A stretch of 64,000 nt of DNA from a virus: the IMG/VR virus record IMGVR_UViG_3300025645_000053, positions 13,924 through 77,923 of that record, one strand, 5' to 3'. Numbering within the stretch: the stretch's first letter is position 1; each line of letters starts with the position of its first letter. Position numbers and translations under genes: made by a program. Positions 6,793 through 15,300 of this stretch are shown piece after piece. A model generated the notes under the pieces. That model saw nothing but the letters and a program-made list of their open reading frames with translations. It ran no database searches and had not been told where the DNA came from.

Positions 6793-6984
6793 ATAAATAT
6801 TGTCAGGAAGCGGAAACGTTTCTCTAAATGGGCTAAGCAAGACAAGACCAATTTAGAAATGATTGAAGTGATTAAGACGTATTACGGGTATTCAAACGAC
6901 AAAGCCCGTCAAGTACTATCTCTTCTTAACAATGAACAGTTGAATGAACTACAGCGGAAGGTTGACCATGGTGGAACAAAATAA
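6793..6984 (+). pseudogene. 62: orphan second copy of the gp62 3' end
   Basis: Open frame INIVRKRKRFSKWAKQDKTNLEMIEVIKTYYGYSNDKARQV...GGTK* preceded by an in-frame stop; 23 bp identical to 5991-6013. Confidence 0.88.
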
Positions 6985-7384
6985 ACAAGTAGAGTGGACT
7001 CCAAACACAATGTTGGAAATTACACTAAATGAACCCGACGACTTTTTAAAAGTACGCGAAACATTAACACGAATTGGTGTTGCATCGCAACTTGATAAAA
7101 GATTATATCAGTCTTGTCACATATTACATAAACAAGGAAGATACTTCATTGTACACTTTAAAGAATTATTCATTCTTGATGGCAAAGCATCAAACTTATT
7201 TGAGAATGATATTCAACGACGCAACACGATCACAATGCTGTTATCAGATTGGGGATTAATTAATGTTGTAAATCCTGATGAGGCAAAAGACACTGCTCAT
7301 CTAAGACAAATAAAAATCATCTCTTTTAAAGAAAAGGATGAATGGGATTTACAGCCAAAATACAATATTGGAACAAAATCCTAA
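6968..7384 (+). CDS. regA: translational repressor RegA
   Basis: DDFLKVRETLTRIGVAS, LYQSCHILHKQGRYFIVHFKELF. Confidence 0.97.
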   Translation: MVEQNKQVEWTPNTMLEITLNEPDDFLKVRETLTRIGVASQLDKRLYQSCHILHKQGRYFIVHFKELFILDGKASNLFENDIQRRNTITMLLSDWGLINVVNPDEAKDTAHLRQIKIISFKEKDEWDLQPKYNIGTKS

Positions 7385-7389
7385 TACTG

Positions 7390-7522
7390 TATAAATAAAA
7401 AGATTGGGGTTACTATAAGGTTTTATGGTAACCCGCAATAACCGCGATGCATCTTTGATGGTCGCACCTTAATAAAACGGATGCCGAAAGGATCCACGCA
7501 CCTTGCTAATTAGGAGGCAAAC
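7390..7522 (+). promoter_or_regulatory. late promoter plus four-hairpin 5' UTR, ROSE-like RNA thermometer
   Basis: TATAAATA 7390-7397; successive hairpins; the last pairs TTGCT (7503-7507) with the AGGAGG SD. Confidence 0.7.
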
Positions 7523-7978
7523 ATGTCGAACTACGATAAGTATGATTACAGCACACAAAACCCTTTAGAAAAAATCTTTTACGATTCAGGATTCCCTTCC
7601 AATCTTTTTGATACTTTGCTATCAAAAGTAGGTAATACCACAACTTCATTCCCACCTTATGACATTATAAGCGAAATAAATGAAGAAGACAAATCGTATC
7701 GCGTGATTATTTCTATGGCGTTAGCTGGCTTCGATAAAGATGAAATTAATATCGAGCAAAAGTCGAATATCTTAACAATTTCTTCTGAAGGTAAATCGAA
7801 GAAGAAAGACGTAAAATACATTCAGAAAGGTATTTCTAAAAGAGCCTTTGAAAATAAATTTAAGCTATCACAATACGCTGTAATTGCTAATGCAACTATG
7901 GAAAATGGTATGCTTGAAGTATTAATTGACTTTGAAATTCCTGAAGAACTGAAAGCAAACAAAATTCAAATTAAATAA
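7523..7978 (+). CDS. hsp20: small heat-shock protein Hsp20 (IbpA-like)
   Basis: FPPYDI, ALAGF, GISKRAF, ATMENGML. Confidence 0.92.
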   Translation: MSNYDKYDYSTQNPLEKIFYDSGFPSNLFDTLLSKVGNTTTSFPPYDIISEINEEDKSYRVIISMALAGFDKDEINIEQKSNILTISSEGKSKKKDVKYIQKGISKRAFENKFKLSQYAVIANATMENGMLEVLIDFEIPEELKANKIQIK

Positions 7979-7993
7979 ATTATAGGAGTTATT

Positions 7994-8284
7994 ATGTCAG
8001 ATAATGTACATGTTTTAAGATTGATCACAGGTGAAGAATTAATTGCAGTAGTTGAGTCCTTTGATGGTACTGTCTATAAGATTAATAATGTTGCGGTATT
8101 AATACCTACACAAGATAACTCTTTAGGACTAGCTCCCTTTATGGCTTACTGTGAAGATGGTCCCCTTGAATTGCGAGGGTCAGACGTCATGTTTACACGT
8201 ACACCAGTCGAAGGTTTGGCAAAACAACACGGTAATATGTTCGGTAAAATAGTAACTCCTTCTAAGAAAATTATATTGGGTTAA
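7994..8284 (+). CDS. conserved hypothetical protein (Sm-like fold likely)
   Basis: LRLITGEELIA ... IVTPSKKII; usual neighbour of gp43. Confidence 0.7.
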   Translation: MSDNVHVLRLITGEELIAVVESFDGTVYKINNVAVLIPTQDNSLGLAPFMAYCEDGPLELRGSDVMFTRTPVEGLAKQHGNMFGKIVTPSKKIILG

Positions 8285-8308
8285 ATTTAAGAAAGGGTAT
8301 CATTTCTA

Positions 8309-8337
8309 TTGACATGATACCCTTTTTGTTATATAAT
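8309..8337 (+). promoter_or_regulatory. sigma70-type promoter of gp43 part 1, overlapping a hairpin
   Basis: TTGACA-17-TATAAT; AAAGGGTATCAT/ATGATACCCTTT inverted repeat encloses the -35. Confidence 0.8.
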
Positions 8338-8367
8338 AGTATTTGATTTTTACAATGGAGTACCACC

Positions 8368-9363
8368 TTGACTGAATTCTATACCTCCGTCGCCCGCTAC
8401 GGCAATTCGCTTTTATATCGTGGATACAAAGGCAAGCATAAAGTACGCGAAAAGATAAAGTTCAAACCTACCTTATACCTCAAAGATAACGAAAGTGAAA
8501 CAAAAGCACTTGATGGCGTTTCAGTTTCTCCAATGCAATACTCTTCAATGCGCGATGCAAAAGAATTTATTGAGCAATACAAAGATGTGCCTAACTTTGA
8601 AATATACGGCAATCGTAATTACATAGTTCAATACATTCAAGAAAAGTTCCCTGGTAATATTGCGTTTGATATGGACAATGTTAATGTTGCGGCTATTGAC
8701 ATTGAAGTTGTTGCTGATGAGTTTCCACATGCCGAACAGGCACTATATCCTATTGTTTCAATTGCAATGATGTCTACTCAAGATAGCATGCGACGTGTAT
8801 GGGGATTACCTAACTATAAAAATACTCGTGATGATGTAATTTATTATCACTGTAAGAACGAAGCCGAACTGTTAATGAAGTTCATAACACATTGGTCAAA
8901 TCCTGAATATACTCCAGATATCGTTACAGGCTGGAATACTCGATTCTTTGATACACCTTATATTATCAATCGACTTGCTAAAACTTTAGGTATTGAATTT
9001 GCCAAAAAGTATTCTCCATGGGGTTTGATAAATGAACGCATGGTTACGGTTAACGGTCAAAAGCAACAGAGCTACGAAGTAACAGGATTGCCTGAACTTG
9101 ATTACATGGAGTTATTTAAGAAGTTTACTATTAATACATTAGGCGCTCAAGAATCATATAAACTTGATCATATTGCAAACGTTGTGCTTGGCGATCGGAA
9201 ATTGTCATACGAAGAAAACACACAGATGTATGCTTTACTACGCGACGCCGAAGGCTGTAACCCTGACGAGAAACTGACCAAGCTAGAAGACATGGACGAG
9301 TTACAACGCACGTGTCTTCTTCGTGATCGTGTACGCGCCTTACGCTTGTCTCGAGGGGTTTAG
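8368..9363 (+). CDS. 43: DNA polymerase gp43 part 1 (N-terminal domain, ExoI and ExoII)
   Basis: IDIEV (ExoI), GWNTRFFD (ExoII), ESYKLDHIA; ends in a non-polymerase tail. Confidence 0.93.
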   Translation: MTEFYTSVARYGNSLLYRGYKGKHKVREKIKFKPTLYLKDNESETKALDGVSVSPMQYSSMRDAKEFIEQYKDVPNFEIYGNRNYIVQYIQEKFPGNIAFDMDNVNVAAIDIEVVADEFPHAEQALYPIVSIAMMSTQDSMRRVWGLPNYKNTRDDVIYYHCKNEAELLMKFITHWSNPEYTPDIVTGWNTRFFDTPYIINRLAKTLGIEFAKKYSPWGLINERMVTVNGQKQQSYEVTGLPELDYMELFKKFTINTLGAQESYKLDHIANVVLGDRKLSYEENTQMYALLRDAEGCNPDEKLTKLEDMDELQRTCLLRDRVRALRLSRGV

Positions 9364-10053
9364 TTTGCAATTATCATCATGCCAGCGCTTTAAGTTAGAA
9401 TATGTGGTTACTACATTACAGTGTTGACATTTTCGAGTTTTATGATTTATTTTCCCACGGGCGATTTCATCACTAAATTGGCCAAGGCTGTCGATATAAA
9501 TGCCCCACCCTTTTGCCGACATCTTGACTGCGCCTTTATACGCTCTTATAAGCGAATTAATATCGTGTTGGCTAATCACGTCGGCATGCTTGGTATGGAA
9601 GTCCATACGGGTCCCTTTAAAGACGGTTGTACTGTTTTTAAACGTGTATGTGTGATCGTCATAGTTGGGATTAGCCTTTCCGCTAGAGCGTATAGAACAC
9701 GCTTCTATAAACCGGCGTTTATGCGCTTCATAAATAGTTGATGAGAATTTTAGACCTAGCCGTTGGGTATATCCAAAGTGAAAAAACGTATGAAGCGCGA
9801 ATGTCATTTTACATGTGTCTTTGCCAATAGTGAATTTAGTTAATAGCAAATGGGCGATATAATGCTCTCTAAATGTATATGGGAGCATTATTGTTCCACC
9901 AAAACTGTGGGGTAGCACATGATGATTTTCATGCTCAGCCGACGTATAAGTACGTTGTTCACTGACTATTTTATTTGCTAATGCTAAATACGCCCGATAA
10001 TACTTGTTGCATTTAAAGTTATTATAATTTAAAAATTCGTTTACCATTGACAT
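9340..10053 (-). mobile_element. MobE-like HNH homing endonuclease
   Basis: ENHHVLPHSFGG...REHYIAHLLL; C-terminal CQHC...RWHDDNCK. Confidence 0.85.
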
Positions 10054-10075
10054 TACATCTCTATTAGTTTATAAT
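10047..10075 (+). promoter_or_regulatory. sigma70-type promoter of gp43 part 2
   Basis: Perfect TTGACA-17-TATAAT; AAGGA RBS before 10103. Confidence 0.85.
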
Positions 10076-10102
10076 ACTATATATAACATTAAGGATCTTA
10101 CT

Positions 10103-10792
10103 ATGAACATTGATTATTTACTTAGCTCTAATCTAGATAATTTATCTGACGATGAATTGATTGCCTTAGATGCTGAGCTTACGGCAGAAGCTAATCTGCT
10201 CGCCGGATACAAAGGAATTGATTATAATATAGTCGATATTGAGTTAATTCTTCGCATGGATGATAAACTTCAATTGATTGGTCTGGCTGCGACGATGGCT
10301 TATAGCGCTGGTGTTAATTACGGTGATACATTAGGCACAACTGCTATTTGGGATGCTATCATCTATCGTGATTTGTGTTCTCGTAACATGGCTGTACCAC
10401 CTAACAAGCATAAGTTCAAAGATGCGTTTGAAGGCGGCTGGGTTAAAGCTCCTAAGGTTGGTCTACATAATTGGGTAGTATCATTCGATTTGGCATCGCT
10501 TTATCCCCACTTAATAATGCAAGCAAACATATCTCCAGAAACCTTAGTTGAAGGCGATCGTATAGACGGTCTTACAGTTAATAACTTGTTGGAACGTAAA
10601 AGCTTTGAGGTACCAGACGGTCGAGCGTTATGTCCTAATGGAGTTATGTTTGATACCGAAAAGCAAGGTGTCATTCCTGCGCTAATCAAAACCAAGTATG
10701 CCGCTCGTAAACGTATCAAAAAAGAAATGCTTTCAGCGCAACAAGAATTGGTTAACGTCGAGGAGGAAATGAAACGTCGAGGTATCACTTAA
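10103..10792 (+). CDS. 43: DNA polymerase gp43 part 2 (ExoIII, motif A, first fingers helix)
   Basis: DYNIVD (ExoIII), FEGGWVKAP, SFDLASLYPHLIMQANISPET. Confidence 0.93.
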   Translation: MNIDYLLSSNLDNLSDDELIALDAELTAEANLLAGYKGIDYNIVDIELILRMDDKLQLIGLAATMAYSAGVNYGDTLGTTAIWDAIIYRDLCSRNMAVPPNKHKFKDAFEGGWVKAPKVGLHNWVVSFDLASLYPHLIMQANISPETLVEGDRIDGLTVNNLLERKSFEVPDGRALCPNGVMFDTEKQGVIPALIKTKYAARKRIKKEMLSAQQELVNVEEEMKRRGIT

Positions 10793-10947
10793 TGATACTT
10801 CACTTTGACTCATTGTCTAATAGCGATTTCACGGAGTATTTACGCAAAGCAAACGCTTTACATCGGCTTGGTCACTTTCGACATTTAACACCGCGTGAGT
10901 TAGCAAAACATATTTATGATACTGAAATGAAAAATAAATGCGAATAA
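10792..10947 (+). CDS. small hypothetical protein (51 aa, not in ORF track)
   Basis: MILHFDSLSNSDFTEYLRKANAL...ELAKHIYD; TAATG coupling. Confidence 0.6.
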   Translation: MILHFDSLSNSDFTEYLRKANALHRLGHFRHLTPRELAKHIYDTEMKNKCE

Positions 10948-11044
10948 CTGCAGTATTAAGAATGTGATATGTATAAATAATAATGAACAGAGTGGTATTG
11001 GTAGTACCACTCCATCCTCAGACATAACCAACAGGAAATTACTC

Positions 11045-11788
11045 ATGTCCATTACTATTTATCAACACCAGTTAGACACTCATTTAGAAACTGTAATATC
11101 ATCATTAAAAGCAGGCGAGTCATTACTTCAGCTATGCAAGAAATACAGCATAAACTATCATGCCTTTCGTAAAGTGATAAAGCGTGATTATCCAACGTTG
11201 TTGTCAATGAAAAAGTCAAAACAAATGCGTGAAAGAATGTCTGCTTCAACTCGGAAGTTCTCACCTGACGAAGAGCAACATATAATTGAACGCTACATGG
11301 CCGGCGAAAGCGCATATCAGATTCTTAAAGACTATGATGTTGTAGTCAATGTTATATACAGCATTCTAAAAAGAAACAACATTCCTAAGAATAACCAGTC
11401 CAGTTATTGGACTGATGAAATGCGAGAAAAGCAACGGCAGTTGTGCTATGATGGTATTGTTGGCATACATGCTCAAGGTGATGGTGCATATCGTTTCACT
11501 AAACCTGAGAGAGACTTTGCTAAATGGTGTGAAGATAACACCATTGCATACGAAAGACAATTCCAAATAACAAAAGGCACTCACCGTTATGATTTCATTA
11601 TAAGCGATACTAATATCTTAGTAGAAATTGATGGTGAATATTGGCATAGCACACCAGAACAAACCGCAAAGGACCGTTCGTTTGAGGAATATGCAATTGA
11701 CAACGGTTACGCCGTTATTCGCTTTACTGATAAAGAAATGCGTAAAACAAAAAATAATTGTTTACAAGCACTTAAAAGTTTGATATAA
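11045..11788 (+). mobile_element. DUF559/Vsr-like endonuclease with N-terminal HTH repeats, probable homing endonuclease
   Basis: TKPE, RYDF, VEIDGEYWH, GYAVIRF; TATAAATA at 10972 and a hairpin upstream. Confidence 0.8.
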
Positions 11789-11789
11789 T
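11761..11789 (+). promoter_or_regulatory. sigma70-type promoter of gp43 part 3
   Basis: TTTACA-17-TATAAT; GAGGA RBS before ATG 11817. Confidence 0.75.
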
Positions 11790-11816
11790 AGAACATTACA
11801 ATATGAGGAATACACT

Positions 11817-13169
11817 ATGGATTTAAAAACACTAAGCGACGATGAGCTGCGAGCTTTACATTATGAATACAGTAAAAAGTATTCAACGCTTGACAACCAA
11901 CAAATGAGTATCAAAATCCTAAACTTATTGGGCCTCTAATCAGGAATGATTAGATGAGAATCGGGTGAACTCAGGGAAGGCTTTAATATGCTAATCCTGA
12001 GCCAAGACCTTTATTATGTAAAGGTAAGGTGCAACGACTATCCGAAAGGAGTAGAGATCAAGTGGTCTCGAAGCGCCCGACAGCCAGACCGGCTGATGAT
12101 ATAGTCTGATCTTATACGAAAGTATAAGCTGGGTTCGTCCCGGGATATGATTAACGCTCGTATCCGAACATCATGAATGAACAGTTTGTATGGTGCGATG
12201 GGTTCAGCTTACTTCAGATATTTTGATTTGCGAATGGCTGAAGGCATTACATTGTATGGTCAGTTATCAATTCGTTGGGCTGAGAAATCGTTTAACAACT
12301 TCATTAATAAAATCATGGGTACTACCAAATGTGATTATGTTATTGCTGCTGATACTGATTCTAATTATTTAGATTTTGGCCCACTTGTCGAAAAACTCGG
12401 ATTAGCAAAAACTAATGATACTAAAGGTATTGTTGATATTATCGACAAAATGTGCAGCGATCAGTTTGAACCAATGATTGCTAAATGTTATGACGATCTT
12501 GCTAAATACATGCATGCCTATCAGAACAAAATGGTTATGGAACGTGAAGTAATTGCTGATCTTGGTATATGGACTGCAAAGAAACGTTATATACTAAATG
12601 TACATAACTCTGAAGGTGTATCATTTAAAGAACCTAAACTAAAGATCATGGGTATCGAAGCAATTAAATCTTCAACACCAGCAATATGTCGTGATGCTTT
12701 AAAGAATATCTTCAAGGTTATAATGACTGGTTCTGAGCTTAAAACCCGTAAGGCTATTACTGACTTTCAAGAGTTCTTTCATGCTCAGCCGCCTGAAGCA
12801 GTATCGTTTCCACGTGGAGTTTCTGATATTGTTAAATGGCGCGATGGTGACGGATATAAGTCAAGATGTCCTATACATGTACGCGGCGCTATAATGTATA
12901 ATGTTGGTATTGAGCAGAAGAAACTTAAAAAGTATACTGCAGTTCGTAATGGCGACAAAGTTAAGTTCTGTTACCTTAAGTTGCCTAATCCCATCAAGGA
13001 AAATGTTATTTCGTTTCCTGATTATTTACCGCCTGAGTTAAATTTGAATGCGTATGTTGATTATGATAAGCAATTCAGTAAAACCTTTATAGATCCAATT
13101 GAACCTGTACTTAAGGCTATCGGTTGGTCAGTTGAAGAGCAGTCGAGTTTGGAGGATTTCTTCGGTTAA
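11817..13169 (+). CDS. 43: DNA polymerase gp43 part 3, spliced: join(11817..11920,12176..13169)
   Basis: Exon 1 MDLKTLSDDEL...QQMSIKI plus CT|A restores KILMNSLYG (motif B); ADTDS (motif C), KKRY, C-terminal SSLEDFFG. Confidence 0.92.
11921..12175 (+). ncRNA. ORF-less group I intron (255 nt)
   Basis: 5' exon ends in U with P1 CCU|AA..UUGGG; terminal G; P7 GACTA/TAGTC; TCAGGG/CCTGAG pairing; removal restores frame and motif B. Confidence 0.92.
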
Positions 13170-13273
13170 GGTATATCCATATATCAAACAGTTCTATAAA
13201 AAACTATATACATTAGTCGAACTGTTTGATATAATAGTACCATAAATTGATAACAACCTAACGGAAATACATT

Positions 13274-13492
13274 ATGACTATACTTGCTAAAGCTCAAAGC
13301 CCAAAAATCGAAATAAACCTAGACGGTCCTGACGGCAATGCTTATTGTCTATTAAGCTGCGCTAGATACTTATGTCAGAAATACGCTCTTGACTATGATG
13401 CAATACACGCTGAATTAACTGCTGGCGACTACGAAGATCTTATTCAAACTTTCGATAAACATTTTGGTAATTATGTGAATTTATATAGATAA
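13274..13492 (+). CDS. hypothetical early protein
   Basis: INLDGPDGNAY motif; early promoter upstream. Confidence 0.75.
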   Translation: MTILAKAQSPKIEINLDGPDGNAYCLLSCARYLCQKYALDYDAIHAELTAGDYEDLIQTFDKHFGNYVNLYR

Positions 13493-13562
13493 AGTTGTTG
13501 ACAAGTCAAACCAAAATTGATATAATAGATCTACAAATTGAGTTAAGGAATAAAAATACATT

Positions 13563-13982
13563 ATGGCATTTATCACTACTATCGTTACCGAAGATCTTAT
13601 CGAAAAAACCAAAACATACATCACTGATGTCGTTAACCCACTAGTTGCTTTAGGCAATCATGAAGAAGCAGTTGTAACAAAATCATTCTTCGGATTGTTT
13701 ACTACCACTAAAATGATATCACCATATGCTGAAGACGTAGAGTTTATCATTGAAGATAACGATCTTATTGGCATATTGTCTTACACTGATCTTGATGAAT
13801 CTTATACTGTGTATTTTCGAAGCGATGCGCTTGAATTAATCAGAACTATTGCTTCATTTCAAGGCAAAGGTACAATCGGTTTAAGCGATAAAGAATTCGC
13901 GACTTTCAATAGATTCAAGAATACTGACGTTGATTTGTTAGTTCTTGAAGTACAAAACCTTAAGGATTCAATAAATGCTTAA
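13563..13982 (+). CDS. hypothetical early protein
   Basis: Promoter module and AAGGA RBS. Confidence 0.7.
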   Translation: MAFITTIVTEDLIEKTKTYITDVVNPLVALGNHEEAVVTKSFFGLFTTTKMISPYAEDVEFIIEDNDLIGILSYTDLDESYTVYFRSDALELIRTIASFQGKGTIGLSDKEFATFNRFKNTDVDLLVLEVQNLKDSINA

Positions 13983-15300
13983 TCTTGATAATGTAGTTAA
14001 AACCATAAAGGCTCTTGAGTCGACAACAAAGCGTCTTGAAAAAGAAGCGATATTGACAAAGGTTTTGTCTTCGACTGAGCCTTGGGCTGAAGTATTCATT
14101 GACGGTTTTAAAGCTGCGCTTGATACATATACGACATATGGTGTCAAAAAGCTGCCTTATGGTAAAGACGGTAAAAGTTGCGAAAGCACTTATTCTCGGT
14201 TTTGTGCTGTTGCTCGCAATCTGAAAAATCGTGAATTGACTGGTCATAATGCACTTGACGCGCTTGATGTATTTGCTAATACTCAATGCTCAGAATATCA
14301 TTGGGTCGGTTTCTTTAGACGGATTCTTTCACGTGACATGCGCTGCGGAGTCAATGTATCGACATGGAATAACGTTGCAAAGAAAGCTAATAAAGATGCT
14401 ATGATTCCAGTATTTAGTTGTCAACTTGCAAAGGACGGCGCTAAAGAAAAAGCTATCACTGGTACTAAACTTGTTGAAGTAAAACTTGATGGTGTACGTG
14501 TTATCACTATTGTTCGCCCGGATAGAACAGAAATGTATAGTCGGAACGGAAAACGTCTTGATAACTTTGTTAAGGTTCGCGAATGGTTTGAAGCAAAGGT
14601 TGCTCCACATATTGCTGAAGCAATGGTATTTGATGGCGAAATTATGTCAAGTTCATTCAATGATTTAATGACTCAAGTACGTCGTAAGTCTGATGTTCAA
14701 ACTGATGATGCAGTTCTTCATGTATTCGATTGTTTACCGCTTGAAGACTTCAAAACTGGTTTTTATCCCAGGAGTAATATTGTTCGTAAAGAAACACTGA
14801 CCACTTATGCTGATTTCTTTAACGATAGAATTATTCGTGCTTGCTCTCATAAAGTTGTCGACTTCGATACTGAAGAAGGACTTGCATCATTCAAACAATT
14901 GAATAAAGAAGCGATTGATGGCGGATACGAAGGTCTAATGTTAAAAGATCCTCAATCTCCATATACATGCAAACGTAATAAAGATTGGTTGAAGATTAAA
15001 CCATTCATTGAAGTTACGCTTAAAGTTATTGCAATCGAAGAAGGTACTGGAAAGTACGTTGGTTCAACAGGAGCATTGGTTTGTGAAGGAGTTGACGATG
15101 GCGTAGCGATTACTGTAAACGTTGGTTCAGGATTAACTGATGAAATGCGTAAAGACATATGGGCTGACCAATCAAAAGTCATTGGTCAACTTGTCGAAAT
15201 AAAAGCAGACGCTGTGTCTCAAAACAGTAATGGAACAAATAGTTTACGGTTCCCACGGTTTAAAACCTTCCGTGGATTTGACATTAACGAGAAACTTTGA
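13975..15300 (+). CDS. 30: ATP-dependent DNA ligase
   Basis: EVKLDGVR, FDGE, EGLMLK, WLKIK, SLRFPRF. Confidence 0.95.
   Translation: MLNLDNVVKTIKALESTTKRLEKEAILTKVLSSTEPWAEVFIDGFKAALDTYTTYGVKKLPYGKDGKSCESTYSRFCAVARNLKNRELTGHNALDALDVFANTQCSEYHWVGFFRRILSRDMRCGVNVSTWNNVAKKANKDAMIPVFSCQLAKDGAKEKAITGTKLVEVKLDGVRVITIVRPDRTEMYSRNGKRLDNFVKVREWFEAKVAPHIAEAMVFDGEIMSSSFNDLMTQVRRKSDVQTDDAVLHVFDCLPLEDFKTGFYPRSNIVRKETLTTYADFFNDRIIRACSHKVVDFDTEEGLASFKQLNKEAIDGGYEGLMLKDPQSPYTCKRNKDWLKIKPFIEVTLKVIAIEEGTGKYVGSTGALVCEGVDDGVAITVNVGSGLTDEMRKDIWADQSKVIGQLVEIKADAVSQNSNGTNSLRFPRFKTFRGFDINEKL

Follow-up and report, generated by a model that had tools for sequence, protein, structure and literature searches.

Introduction

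The replicative DNA polymerase of T4-related phages, gp43, is known to be made in two parts in several cases. Bicistronic gp43 has been described for phages 133, 44RR2.8t, 31, 25 and 65 (Petrov et al., 2006, as cited in PMC3061061), and the split halves of the gene 43 product of Aeromonas phage 25 co-purify and are active, according to the accounts given in PMC2988022 and PMC3061061 (Petrov, Ratnayaka & Karam, 2010, J Mol Biol 395:457). An engineered split Pfu polymerase is also known, and the natural splits of family-B polymerases listed in PMC3061061 lie in the fingers, in the palm and at the N/palm junction. Here we analyze the gp43 gene in a 64,000-nucleotide (nt) stretch of DNA from a marine T4-like phage, hereafter the window (positions 13,924 to 77,923 of the IMG/VR record IMGVR_UViG_3300025645_000053), in which the gene is broken twice, once in the proofreading exonuclease domain (break 1) and once at the tip of the fingers (break 2), and is in addition interrupted by a group I intron.

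Two further systems are relevant. In the ribonucleotide reductase gene of Aeromonas phage Aeh1, arranged as nrdA-a / mobE / nrdA-b, the tails of the two halves have been proposed to have come with the endonuclease (Crona et al., 2011, PMC3045599). "Fractured genes" with Vsr-like homing endonucleases have been described as well (Dassa et al., 2009, PMC2677866; I-Bth0305I, PMC3239194). An initial annotation of the window, made from its letters only, had read the gp43 termini as a reassembly module that lets homing endonucleases invade essential genes; assembly tails brought in by a mobile endonuclease had already been put forward by Crona et al. (2011, PMC3045599).

Results

Anatomy of the gp43 gene

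The gene encodes a T4-type family-B polymerase in three cistrons and four coding segments, as seen from the listing of open reading frames (ORFs), family scans and alignment with the unsplit genes of phages C48C1 and Syn33 (~45-57% identity). Piece 1 (8368..9363, plus strand, 331 amino acids (aa), TTG start) contains the N-terminal domain, ExoI (DIEV) and ExoII (TGWNTRFFDTPY); its native part runs to about residue 293, and it aligns with RB69 gp43 as far as residue 306. Piece 2 (10103..10792, plus strand, 229 aa) starts with an extra peptide, head 1, continues with ExoIII (YNIVDIEL), motif A (DLASLYP) and the first fingers helix, and ends in ..EEEMKRRGIT, with RB69 residues 319-499 corresponding to its residues 37-219. 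ORFs, families and alignment agree with the initial annotation on the extent of both pieces and on their content, ExoI/II in piece 1 and ExoIII with motif A in piece 2, and the terminal peptides that it quoted are correct. Its reading of 11817-13169 as a single ORF did not hold, as the frame is closed by a stop at 11937-11939 after 40 codons and reopens at 12177; a group I intron had been missed. Piece 3 is composed of exon 1 (11817..11920, plus strand, MDLKTLSDDELRALHYEYSKKYSTLDNQQMSIKI followed by CU), which encodes the second fingers helix and the first half of motif B and is collinear with NQQMAIKILMNSLYG of C48C1, and exon 2 (12176..13169, plus strand), which provides the rest of motif B (A|AUG AAC.., read as L-MNSLYG), motif C (DTDS) and the thumb, as assigned from the ORF list and a match to positions 46-381 of the 382 of phrog_1918. 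None of the catalytic motifs of the exonuclease or the polymerase is damaged, and all are invariant across the family alignments.

Each cistron has its own sigma70-type promoter and Shine-Dalgarno sequence, as had been claimed, and the top three sigma70-like sites of 8200-13400 are the ones located directly upstream of the three cistrons. All are on the plus strand: 8309..8337 for piece 1 (TTGACA-17-TATAAT, 12/12), 10047..10075 for piece 2 (12/12, overlapping the start of the endonuclease gene in the first gap and identical in the related contig L083) and 11761..11789 for piece 3 (TTTACA-17-TATAAT with an extended -10 TG, 11/12, inside the 3' end of the endonuclease gene in the second gap). 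An endonuclease gene does indeed occupy both gaps, a Mob-like HNH gene on the minus strand in the first and a DUF559/Vsr-like gene on the plus strand in the second.

Break 1 splits the proofreading domain

Break 1 falls between ExoII and ExoIII, at RB69 residues ~306-319, where unsplit relatives read KLSYEEHGNLxxLYKEDYQKFIDYN without an insert. At this site the window carries 38 extra C-terminal residues on piece 1 (tail 1, 9247..9360, plus strand, ..ELQRTCLLRDRVRALRLSRGV) and ~36 extra N-terminal residues on piece 2 (head 1, 10103..10210, plus strand, MNIDYLLSSNLDNLSDDELIALDAEL..). The extra residues are missing from C48C1, Syn33, L235 and 12 other unsplit genes, head 1 is conserved in about 18 clusters, and the break-1 tails are conserved at ~40% overall identity with R319, D320 and R329 invariant, so that these peptides are real additions, as initially proposed. 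The proposed charge pattern of an acidic head and a basic tail end was likewise found (-8.5 for head 1, +4.8 for the last 20 residues of tail 1). Their comparison with a LEM/SAP helix pair finds no backing, with no Pfam match to either family in pieces 1, 2 and 3 at E up to 0.01.

Between tail and head lies a free-standing Mob-like HNH homing endonuclease gene (9340..10053, minus strand), antisense to gp43, whose 3' end overlaps piece 1 by 24 nt. It matches phrog_655 (E=1.6e-18) and, in tblastn, genes of RB16 and others that carry a Mob-like HNH annotation (27-30% identity). The same antisense gene is found in the same place and orientation in L083 (88%) and in a second contig, L086 (52%). Single-protein and alignment queries of IMG/VR returned only these two relatives, and none was present in any other fetched locus.

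The split itself is common in metagenomes. When piece 2 was the query of an exhaustive search without profiles, 17 of the best 150 cluster representatives considered were found to start with a homologous head (consensus ..IDxLxxxDLSxLSDDELxxL..). Eight of these 17 have 230-254 residues and terminate at the fingertip, which makes them middle pieces of three-part enzymes, while several others, with 573-591 residues, have break 1 as their only split. The tail motif L(Q/E)(R/K)xC(L/S)(L/V)RD(R/K)(V/I/F)(R/K) is common to five piece-1 proteins, and the ends of break-1 tails vary (..SRGV, ..KRKQNT, ..SRKPSLSLNS, ..RRLASK). At break 1, L083 is 84-90% and L086 42-52% identical to the window, and both have neither break 2 nor the intron. 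P0222 and P0223, the nearest proteins by piece 1, have break 2 and lack break 1. Thus, the two breaks occur independently. A metagenome scan with the head alignment returned almost exclusively unsplit genes, matched through ExoIII alone. We also considered whether the head occurs in-frame in unsplit genes found by tblastn with query residues 8-215, and rejected these candidates because the alignment simply runs through the native KLSYEE..LYK with no insert.

Tail, endonuclease gene, promoter and head form a mobile cassette

The phylogeny and the silent sites both point to movement of break 1. A tree of 157 rows, covering the ExoIII-to-fingers region, requires 15 changes of the break-1 state, at least 7 of which are forced by well-supported branches, and a single clade of break-1 split forms is rejected by the approximately unbiased (AU) test (p=5e-8). 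L235 is unsplit and yet a close relative of the split L086 group. Silent changes between the window and L083, counted at codons with identical residues, amount to 0.38, 0.49 and 0.41 in the native polymerase (piece 1, piece 2 and exon 2) and to 0.12, 0.21 and 0.19 in the tail, the HNH gene and the head. Pooled, the cassette stands at 0.19 vs 0.42 for the native gene (Fisher p=2.6e-11). The lower silent divergence implies a common ancestor of tail, endonuclease, promoter and head that is more recent than that of the surrounding gene, and these sequence comparisons show tails and heads traveling with the endonuclease as one unit. The initial suggestion of such joint movement is borne out by a silent-site divergence that is half that of the native gene.

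DNA identity to L083 is raised over ~9090..10260 (84-99% vs 61-83% outside), from the end of native piece 1 through the tail, the homing endonuclease gene, the promoter and the head to the start of native piece 2. We read this 1.2-kb tract as the probable mobile cassette together with co-converted flanks, the footprint expected of homing.

Break 2 and its insert

To judge from its sequence, break 2 is of the old, widespread and already published 43A/43B split type. The match of piece 2 to phrog_2062 (43A) extends to position 501 of 502, and exon 2 fills phrog_1918 (43B, 382 residues) from position 46. The same fingertip split is present in 19 of 160 marine loci (8 of the first 80 and 11 of the 80 later ones), with tails reading ..LVDIEEEMKRRG(I/L)x and heads reading ..(D)YSxLSDxxLxxL.., and about 50 stored proteins (470-545 residues) of ~240 fetched terminate at the fingertip. 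In some of the split marine loci the stop and start codons overlap and an endonuclease gene is lacking. In L003, 43A and 43B are separated by a purM-like gene (L003:2789-3721, 310 aa, AIR synthetase-like), the start of which overlaps the stop of 43A; there the fingertip split serves as an ordinary intergenic site for a metabolic gene. The 43B starts of L003-L045 and L198-L227 carry a conserved N-terminal extension, MGYLIGG(A/N).., which is ~25 residues long and precedes the LSDxxL helix start.

The break-2 termini had been taken for added tags. In L083, the closest relative, the fingertip is unsplit and reads ..EEKIKKEG-STAELEALRYQCDKRYSTLDNQQ.. (..KKEG-STAELEALRY.. in the alignment) where the window has ..EEEMKRRGIT(stop) / MDLKTLSDDELRALHYEYSKKYSTLDNQQ... 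Because the unsplit fingertip reads alike, having most of these residues natively, the "RG tail" and "LSDDEL head" of break 2 are evidently for the most part a native turn (Gly C-cap, S-x-x-E N-cap), to which about eight residues seem to have been added.

The insert begins with a 51-aa ORF (10792..10947, plus strand) whose ATG overlaps the piece 2 stop (TAATG coupling); with no family match and no relative among any fetched loci, it may be cargo of the insert. It is followed by a T4-late-promoter-like sequence, TATAAATA, at 10972..10979 and a 13-bp hairpin at 10985..11017 (plus strand), which lie upstream of the second endonuclease gene and may be regulatory. The hairpin recalls those reported upstream of free-standing endonuclease ORFs (PMC2677866). 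The free-standing Vsr-like (DUF559) endonuclease with its helix-turn-helix region is encoded at 11045..11788 (plus strand) from an ATG at 11045, in a frame that is open from a GTG at 10964. Its product scores 30.5 bits against Pfam DUF559 (cut-off 20.6), its best solved relative is I-Bth0305I (3r3p, E=0.13), and no relative was found in any other fetched locus.

A group I intron interrupts motif B

An ORF-less group I intron of 255 nt (11921..12175, plus strand) interrupts motif B (KIL|MNSLYG). The full-length Rfam model RF00028 matches at 11902-12128 with 98.1 bits (E=4.1e-25). Splice sites were derived from the sequence and from protein collinearity, and only 11920|12176 combines a U ahead of the 5' site and a G ahead of the 3' site with a protein that stays collinear. 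A 5-bp P1 (CCUAA/UUGGG) places U11920 in a U-G pair, and the 3' splice site follows G12175. The predicted spliced reading, CU + A AUG AAC, gives ..QQMSIKIL-MNSLYGAMG and matches C48C1 (..QQMAIKILMNSLYGALG) without indels. With these sites, motif B (Kx3NSxYG) is complete only after splicing. Rfam's own P1 pairing would put the 5' splice site after U11911; this was rejected since it would remove the motif B lysine, while U11920 retains collinearity. RNA splicing is therefore predicted to belong to gp43 expression, though at neither break. A permissive Rfam scan of 7500-14000 (E up to 1) gave no second intron, only the match at 11902-12128.

In a search of the phage collection with 8300-13250 as query, the only near-identical DNA was the intron core (~11959-12112), 80-86% identical to stretches of an Acinetobacter phage (in a hypothetical protein) and of an oyster-associated phage contig (in a primase/helicase gene). 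From these matches, introns related to that of gp43 may sit in other replication genes.

Predicted structures of the break-1 peptides

AlphaFold2 models piece 2 (19 head-bearing sequences) with a helix at 3-8, a loop and a single helix at 16-69, at a predicted local distance difference test (pLDDT) score of ~80-85. In the model, L14-S15-D-D-E18-L19 of head 1 forms a hydrophobic staple and capping box with S15 at the N-cap. Since helix 16-69 is continuous with the ExoIII helix, head 1 is predicted to be an extension of that helix.

A natural counterpart of the assembled peptides may exist in P0175, which carries an in-frame insert of 59 residues at the break-1 site. Its AlphaFold2 model (mean pLDDT 83; the alignment used for folding left out the split pieces, whose tails misaligned) has a disordered loop, a helix at 323-340, a turn (WKNP) and a helix at 345-384 that runs into ExoIII. 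The second helix aligns with the head of a related split protein, P0143 (4/500 shuffles). The initial annotation had named in-frame segments in unsplit homologues, if they are also dispensable for assembly, as evidence against its reading; such a segment exists in P0175, with the head half related.

Genomic context

The neighbors of gp43 fit a T4-like replication module, with a RegA-like repressor (6944-7384), Hsp20 (7523-7978) and an ATP-dependent DNA ligase (13975-15300). A small ORF upstream of gp43 (7994-8284) has no known family and is kept in L083. C48C1 likewise has a RegA-like gene and hsp20 upstream of gp43, and Syn33 likewise has hsp20.

Discussion

Assembly of a three-part polymerase

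We consider it likely that gp43 of this phage consists of three polypeptides that assemble non-covalently, the third of them made only after removal of the self-splicing intron. Break 1 would have been made by a mobile cassette comprising a C-terminal tail, an antisense Mob-type HNH gene, a promoter with a ribosome-binding site (RBS) and an N-terminal head. Head 1 would act as a capped N-terminal extension of the ExoIII helix, and the helix of tail 1, with its basic end, would pack antiparallel on the acidic head, a physical pairing that we infer. Tail and head together would form a split helix-turn-helix hairpin, an extra docking surface on the native interface of the exonuclease-domain halves, a role also suggested for the tails of Aeh1 NrdA-a/NrdA-b. 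Break 2 would be held together by two native antiparallel fingers helices, and the three-part enzyme is presumed to be active. The Vsr-like endonuclease most likely drives homing of the adjoining ORF-less motif B intron, so break-2 homing would be collaborative, as shown for Aeromonas phage 25.

Several points count against parts of this picture. The promoter of piece 2 was not seen in L086. Tail 1 as a whole is near neutral (-0.2) and basic only over its last 20 residues. The P0175 hairpin is predicted at moderate confidence only (pLDDT 60-81), and its first helix showed no significant relatedness to the break-1 tails in a shuffle test. Between the window and L083, tail and head are relatively richer in amino-acid change than their native flanks, which suggests only moderate constraint on both. 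The targets assigned to both endonucleases are guesses. In addition, the Aeh1 tails are dispensable for heterodimer formation and needed at a later assembly step (PMC3045599). As they act late, "docking" may be too simple a description for the break-1 tails.

Are the termini at the two breaks related?

The initial annotation regarded the termini at both breaks as one reusable module with an LSDDEL head and an RG tail. At the level of families the likeness of the heads, DLSxLSDxEL, is real as far as the sequences tell. The break-1 and 43B head profiles align over 25 columns (..dls.LSD.EL..L..) with an hhalign score of 26.4 (P=3e-5), which 0 of 150 column shuffles exceeded (maximum 11.8), and 12 of 18 individual break-1 heads beat >=97% of composition-preserving shuffles. 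The motif L[ST][DE]x[EQ][LIV] occurs within the first 45 residues of only the two downstream gp43 pieces among the 525 six-frame ORFs of the 77.9-kb contig, and thus in no gene other than gp43 among them. The tails did not fare as well. Although their profiles score 13.7 against a null maximum of 11.1, none of the five break-1 tails was pairwise convincingly above composition-preserving shuffles. Tail 1 was also considered as a copy of the 43A tail (TEIAKRK vs TELAKRL) and rejected by the same kind of shuffle. The "RG tail" as a shared feature has to be given up, other break-1 tails ending otherwise.

The reading that survives best, to which we give not quite an even chance, is convergence, in which the likeness of the termini reflects shared physical needs only and no common descent. 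To nucleate a long helix, a free N-terminus would need a capping box with an acidic N-terminal turn, and basic residues with a Gly cap would be needed to end a helix at a free C-terminus. The AlphaFold2 model, with S15 at the N-cap and helix 16-69 after it, agrees with this, as does the unsplit fingertip of L083 (..KKEG-STAEL..), in which a Gly cap and an S-x-x-E cap are native. The lack of significant pairwise likeness between the tails fits as well, and Crona et al. anticipated that unrelated split genes would converge on tails of complementary charge (PMC3045599). The head likeness, however, reaches 4-5 residues upstream of the cap (D-L/Y-S-x-L) and spans 25 profile columns, more than a capping box needs.

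A common origin of the two breaks is a reading that we hold only tentatively, as somewhat less likely than convergence. The cassette in the exonuclease domain would then be a split fingertip that was copied and transposed, made up of the helix N end, an endonuclease and the helix P start, and as such a portable hairpin of self-complementing helices with which an endonuclease could colonize a new site in an essential gene. The head profiles and the 12 of 18 heads that outdo their shuffles speak for common descent, as do the tail profiles, and head-against-tail profile comparisons stay within the null. The break-1 insert is modeled as a helix-turn-helix resembling a small fingertip, the tails move with the endonuclease, and Crona et al. 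propose that tails are inherited with the endonuclease on transposition (PMC3045599). On the other hand, the tails are pairwise no more alike than shuffles and the "RG" ending is not kept among break-1 tails. The short head motif includes a textbook helix start (hydrophobic staple and S-x-x-E capping box) that selection could yield twice, no Mob-like HNH gene was found in any fetched split fingertip locus, and the LSDDEL codons differ between the heads (Ser TCT vs AGC).

Splicing across the breaks and artefact

Far less probable is that one or both breaks are bridged, by RNA splicing through a hidden intron core or by protein trans-splicing, to give a single polypeptide. The gene does contain one working-looking group I intron, phage polymerase genes often have introns and inteins, and several break-1 relatives appear to have an intein-like insert after DTDS. 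These candidates (P0092, P0095, P0163, P0192 and P0214, relatives of pieces 2+3 and mostly split at break 1) read DTDS-VVGDS..(I/V)DG.. and then ..YVMKHRVKKKM(F/Y)KIK..TEDHS.., resembling an intein-type insert in motif C. The observations at the breaks themselves speak against bridging. The permissive Rfam scan found the one intron only; gap 1 leaves 49 nt outside the antisense ORF, and in L086 the next cistron begins only 20 nt from the endonuclease start. As translated sequence, the tails are conserved at 40% identity, a consensus promoter and RBS precede each piece, and many loci have break 2 with overlapping stop and start codons. An intein would not fit into 38 + 36 extra residues, the alignments show neither a conserved Cys1 nor a terminal HN, and the pieces have no match to an intein family, in line with the initial view that intein motifs are absent from the breaks. 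Separate expression of the pieces, also claimed at the outset, is supported by finding neither intron nor intein across either break.

That the split gp43 is a decaying pseudogene or an assembly artefact is hardly credible: the source is a metagenome-type 77.9-kb contig and piece 1 starts with TTG, but break 1 recurs, at 84-90% identity, in L083, which is an independent contig, several contigs represented in the protein collection encode the pieces found in the window (P0001, P0220), the catalytic motifs are all intact, the native parts differ from L083 mostly by synonymous change, both kinds of split recur across many clusters, and the region examined has no other family-B polymerase ORF.

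Implications

Our literature search found no paper on a split of gp43 in the exonuclease domain or on a three-part gp43. New with respect to the papers searched are the position of break 1 inside the proofreading domain, a gp43 of three subunits together with its wide occurrence, and sequence evidence suggesting that docking peptides are cargo of an endonuclease cassette. Repair by short docking peptides as a principle is already published for Aeh1 NrdA. The initial interpretation holds in outline for break 1 and fails for the most part at break 2. A replicative family-B polymerase would appear to tolerate cuts through both its proofreading active site and its fingers, with both catalytic centers contributed by separate chains, and the three-part or exonuclease-domain split recurs in many uncultured T4-like phages. 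The silent-site data lend sequence-level support to the idea developed for Aeh1 NrdA, in which a selfish endonuclease carries its own antidote to the fragmentation of the gene. If the hairpin is portable, it would explain how free-standing endonucleases colonize essential genes and would offer a natural design for split-protein engineering. If the cassette is a transposed fingertip, any surface loop of an essential enzyme could be split into two genes without loss of function, and the three-subunit family-B polymerase would be the visible outcome of one module acting twice. For genome annotation, it should be kept in mind that pipelines will mis-call split genes of the gp43 type as fragments or pseudogenes.

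Comparison with known systems

The fractured genes share with the window a Vsr-like endonuclease between the halves of a replication gene and control elements that come with the insert. Most of them depend on split inteins, whereas the window has none; one intein-less fractured gene (SbcD-like) has short extra termini at the fracture. The bicistronic gp43 genes of phages 133, 44RR2.8t, 31, 25 and 65, as described in the citing paper, resemble break 2 in their fingertip split and independently translated halves, but have two parts and no split in the exonuclease domain.

Among these phages, Aeromonas phage 25 is closest in design. Its record (NC_008208) shows 43A, an endonuclease and then 43B with a group I intron, and thus, like the window, a fingertip 43A/43B split, a free-standing homing endonuclease between the halves and an ORF-less group I intron near motif B; its 43B head also has LSNDEL. 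The phage 25 endonuclease, however, is of the GIY-YIG (Seg-like) type where that of the window is Vsr-like/DUF559, and its intron follows ..NSLYGAL where that of the window follows ..KIL, ~7 codons upstream. The exonuclease domain of phage 25 is unbroken, and the two phages are only distantly related. With a different nuclease family and intron site, the window would represent an independent build of the phage 25 design.

Break 1 finds its nearest counterpart in NrdA of Aeh1. In both, a Mob-type HNH gene splits an essential enzyme within an active-site domain, the halves carry unique tails, a basic one at the C-terminus and an acidic one at the N-terminus, that unsplit homologues lack, and neither RNA nor protein splicing is involved, as judged for the window from its sequence. 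The host gene is ribonucleotide reductase in Aeh1 and the gp43 polymerase in the window, and mobE lies on the sense strand and overlaps nrdA-b, whereas the HNH gene of the window is antisense. The Aeh1 tails act at a later oligomerization step. Finally, the Aeh1 arrangement is known from a single phage, whereas the break-1 cassette of gp43 is widespread and moves as a unit.

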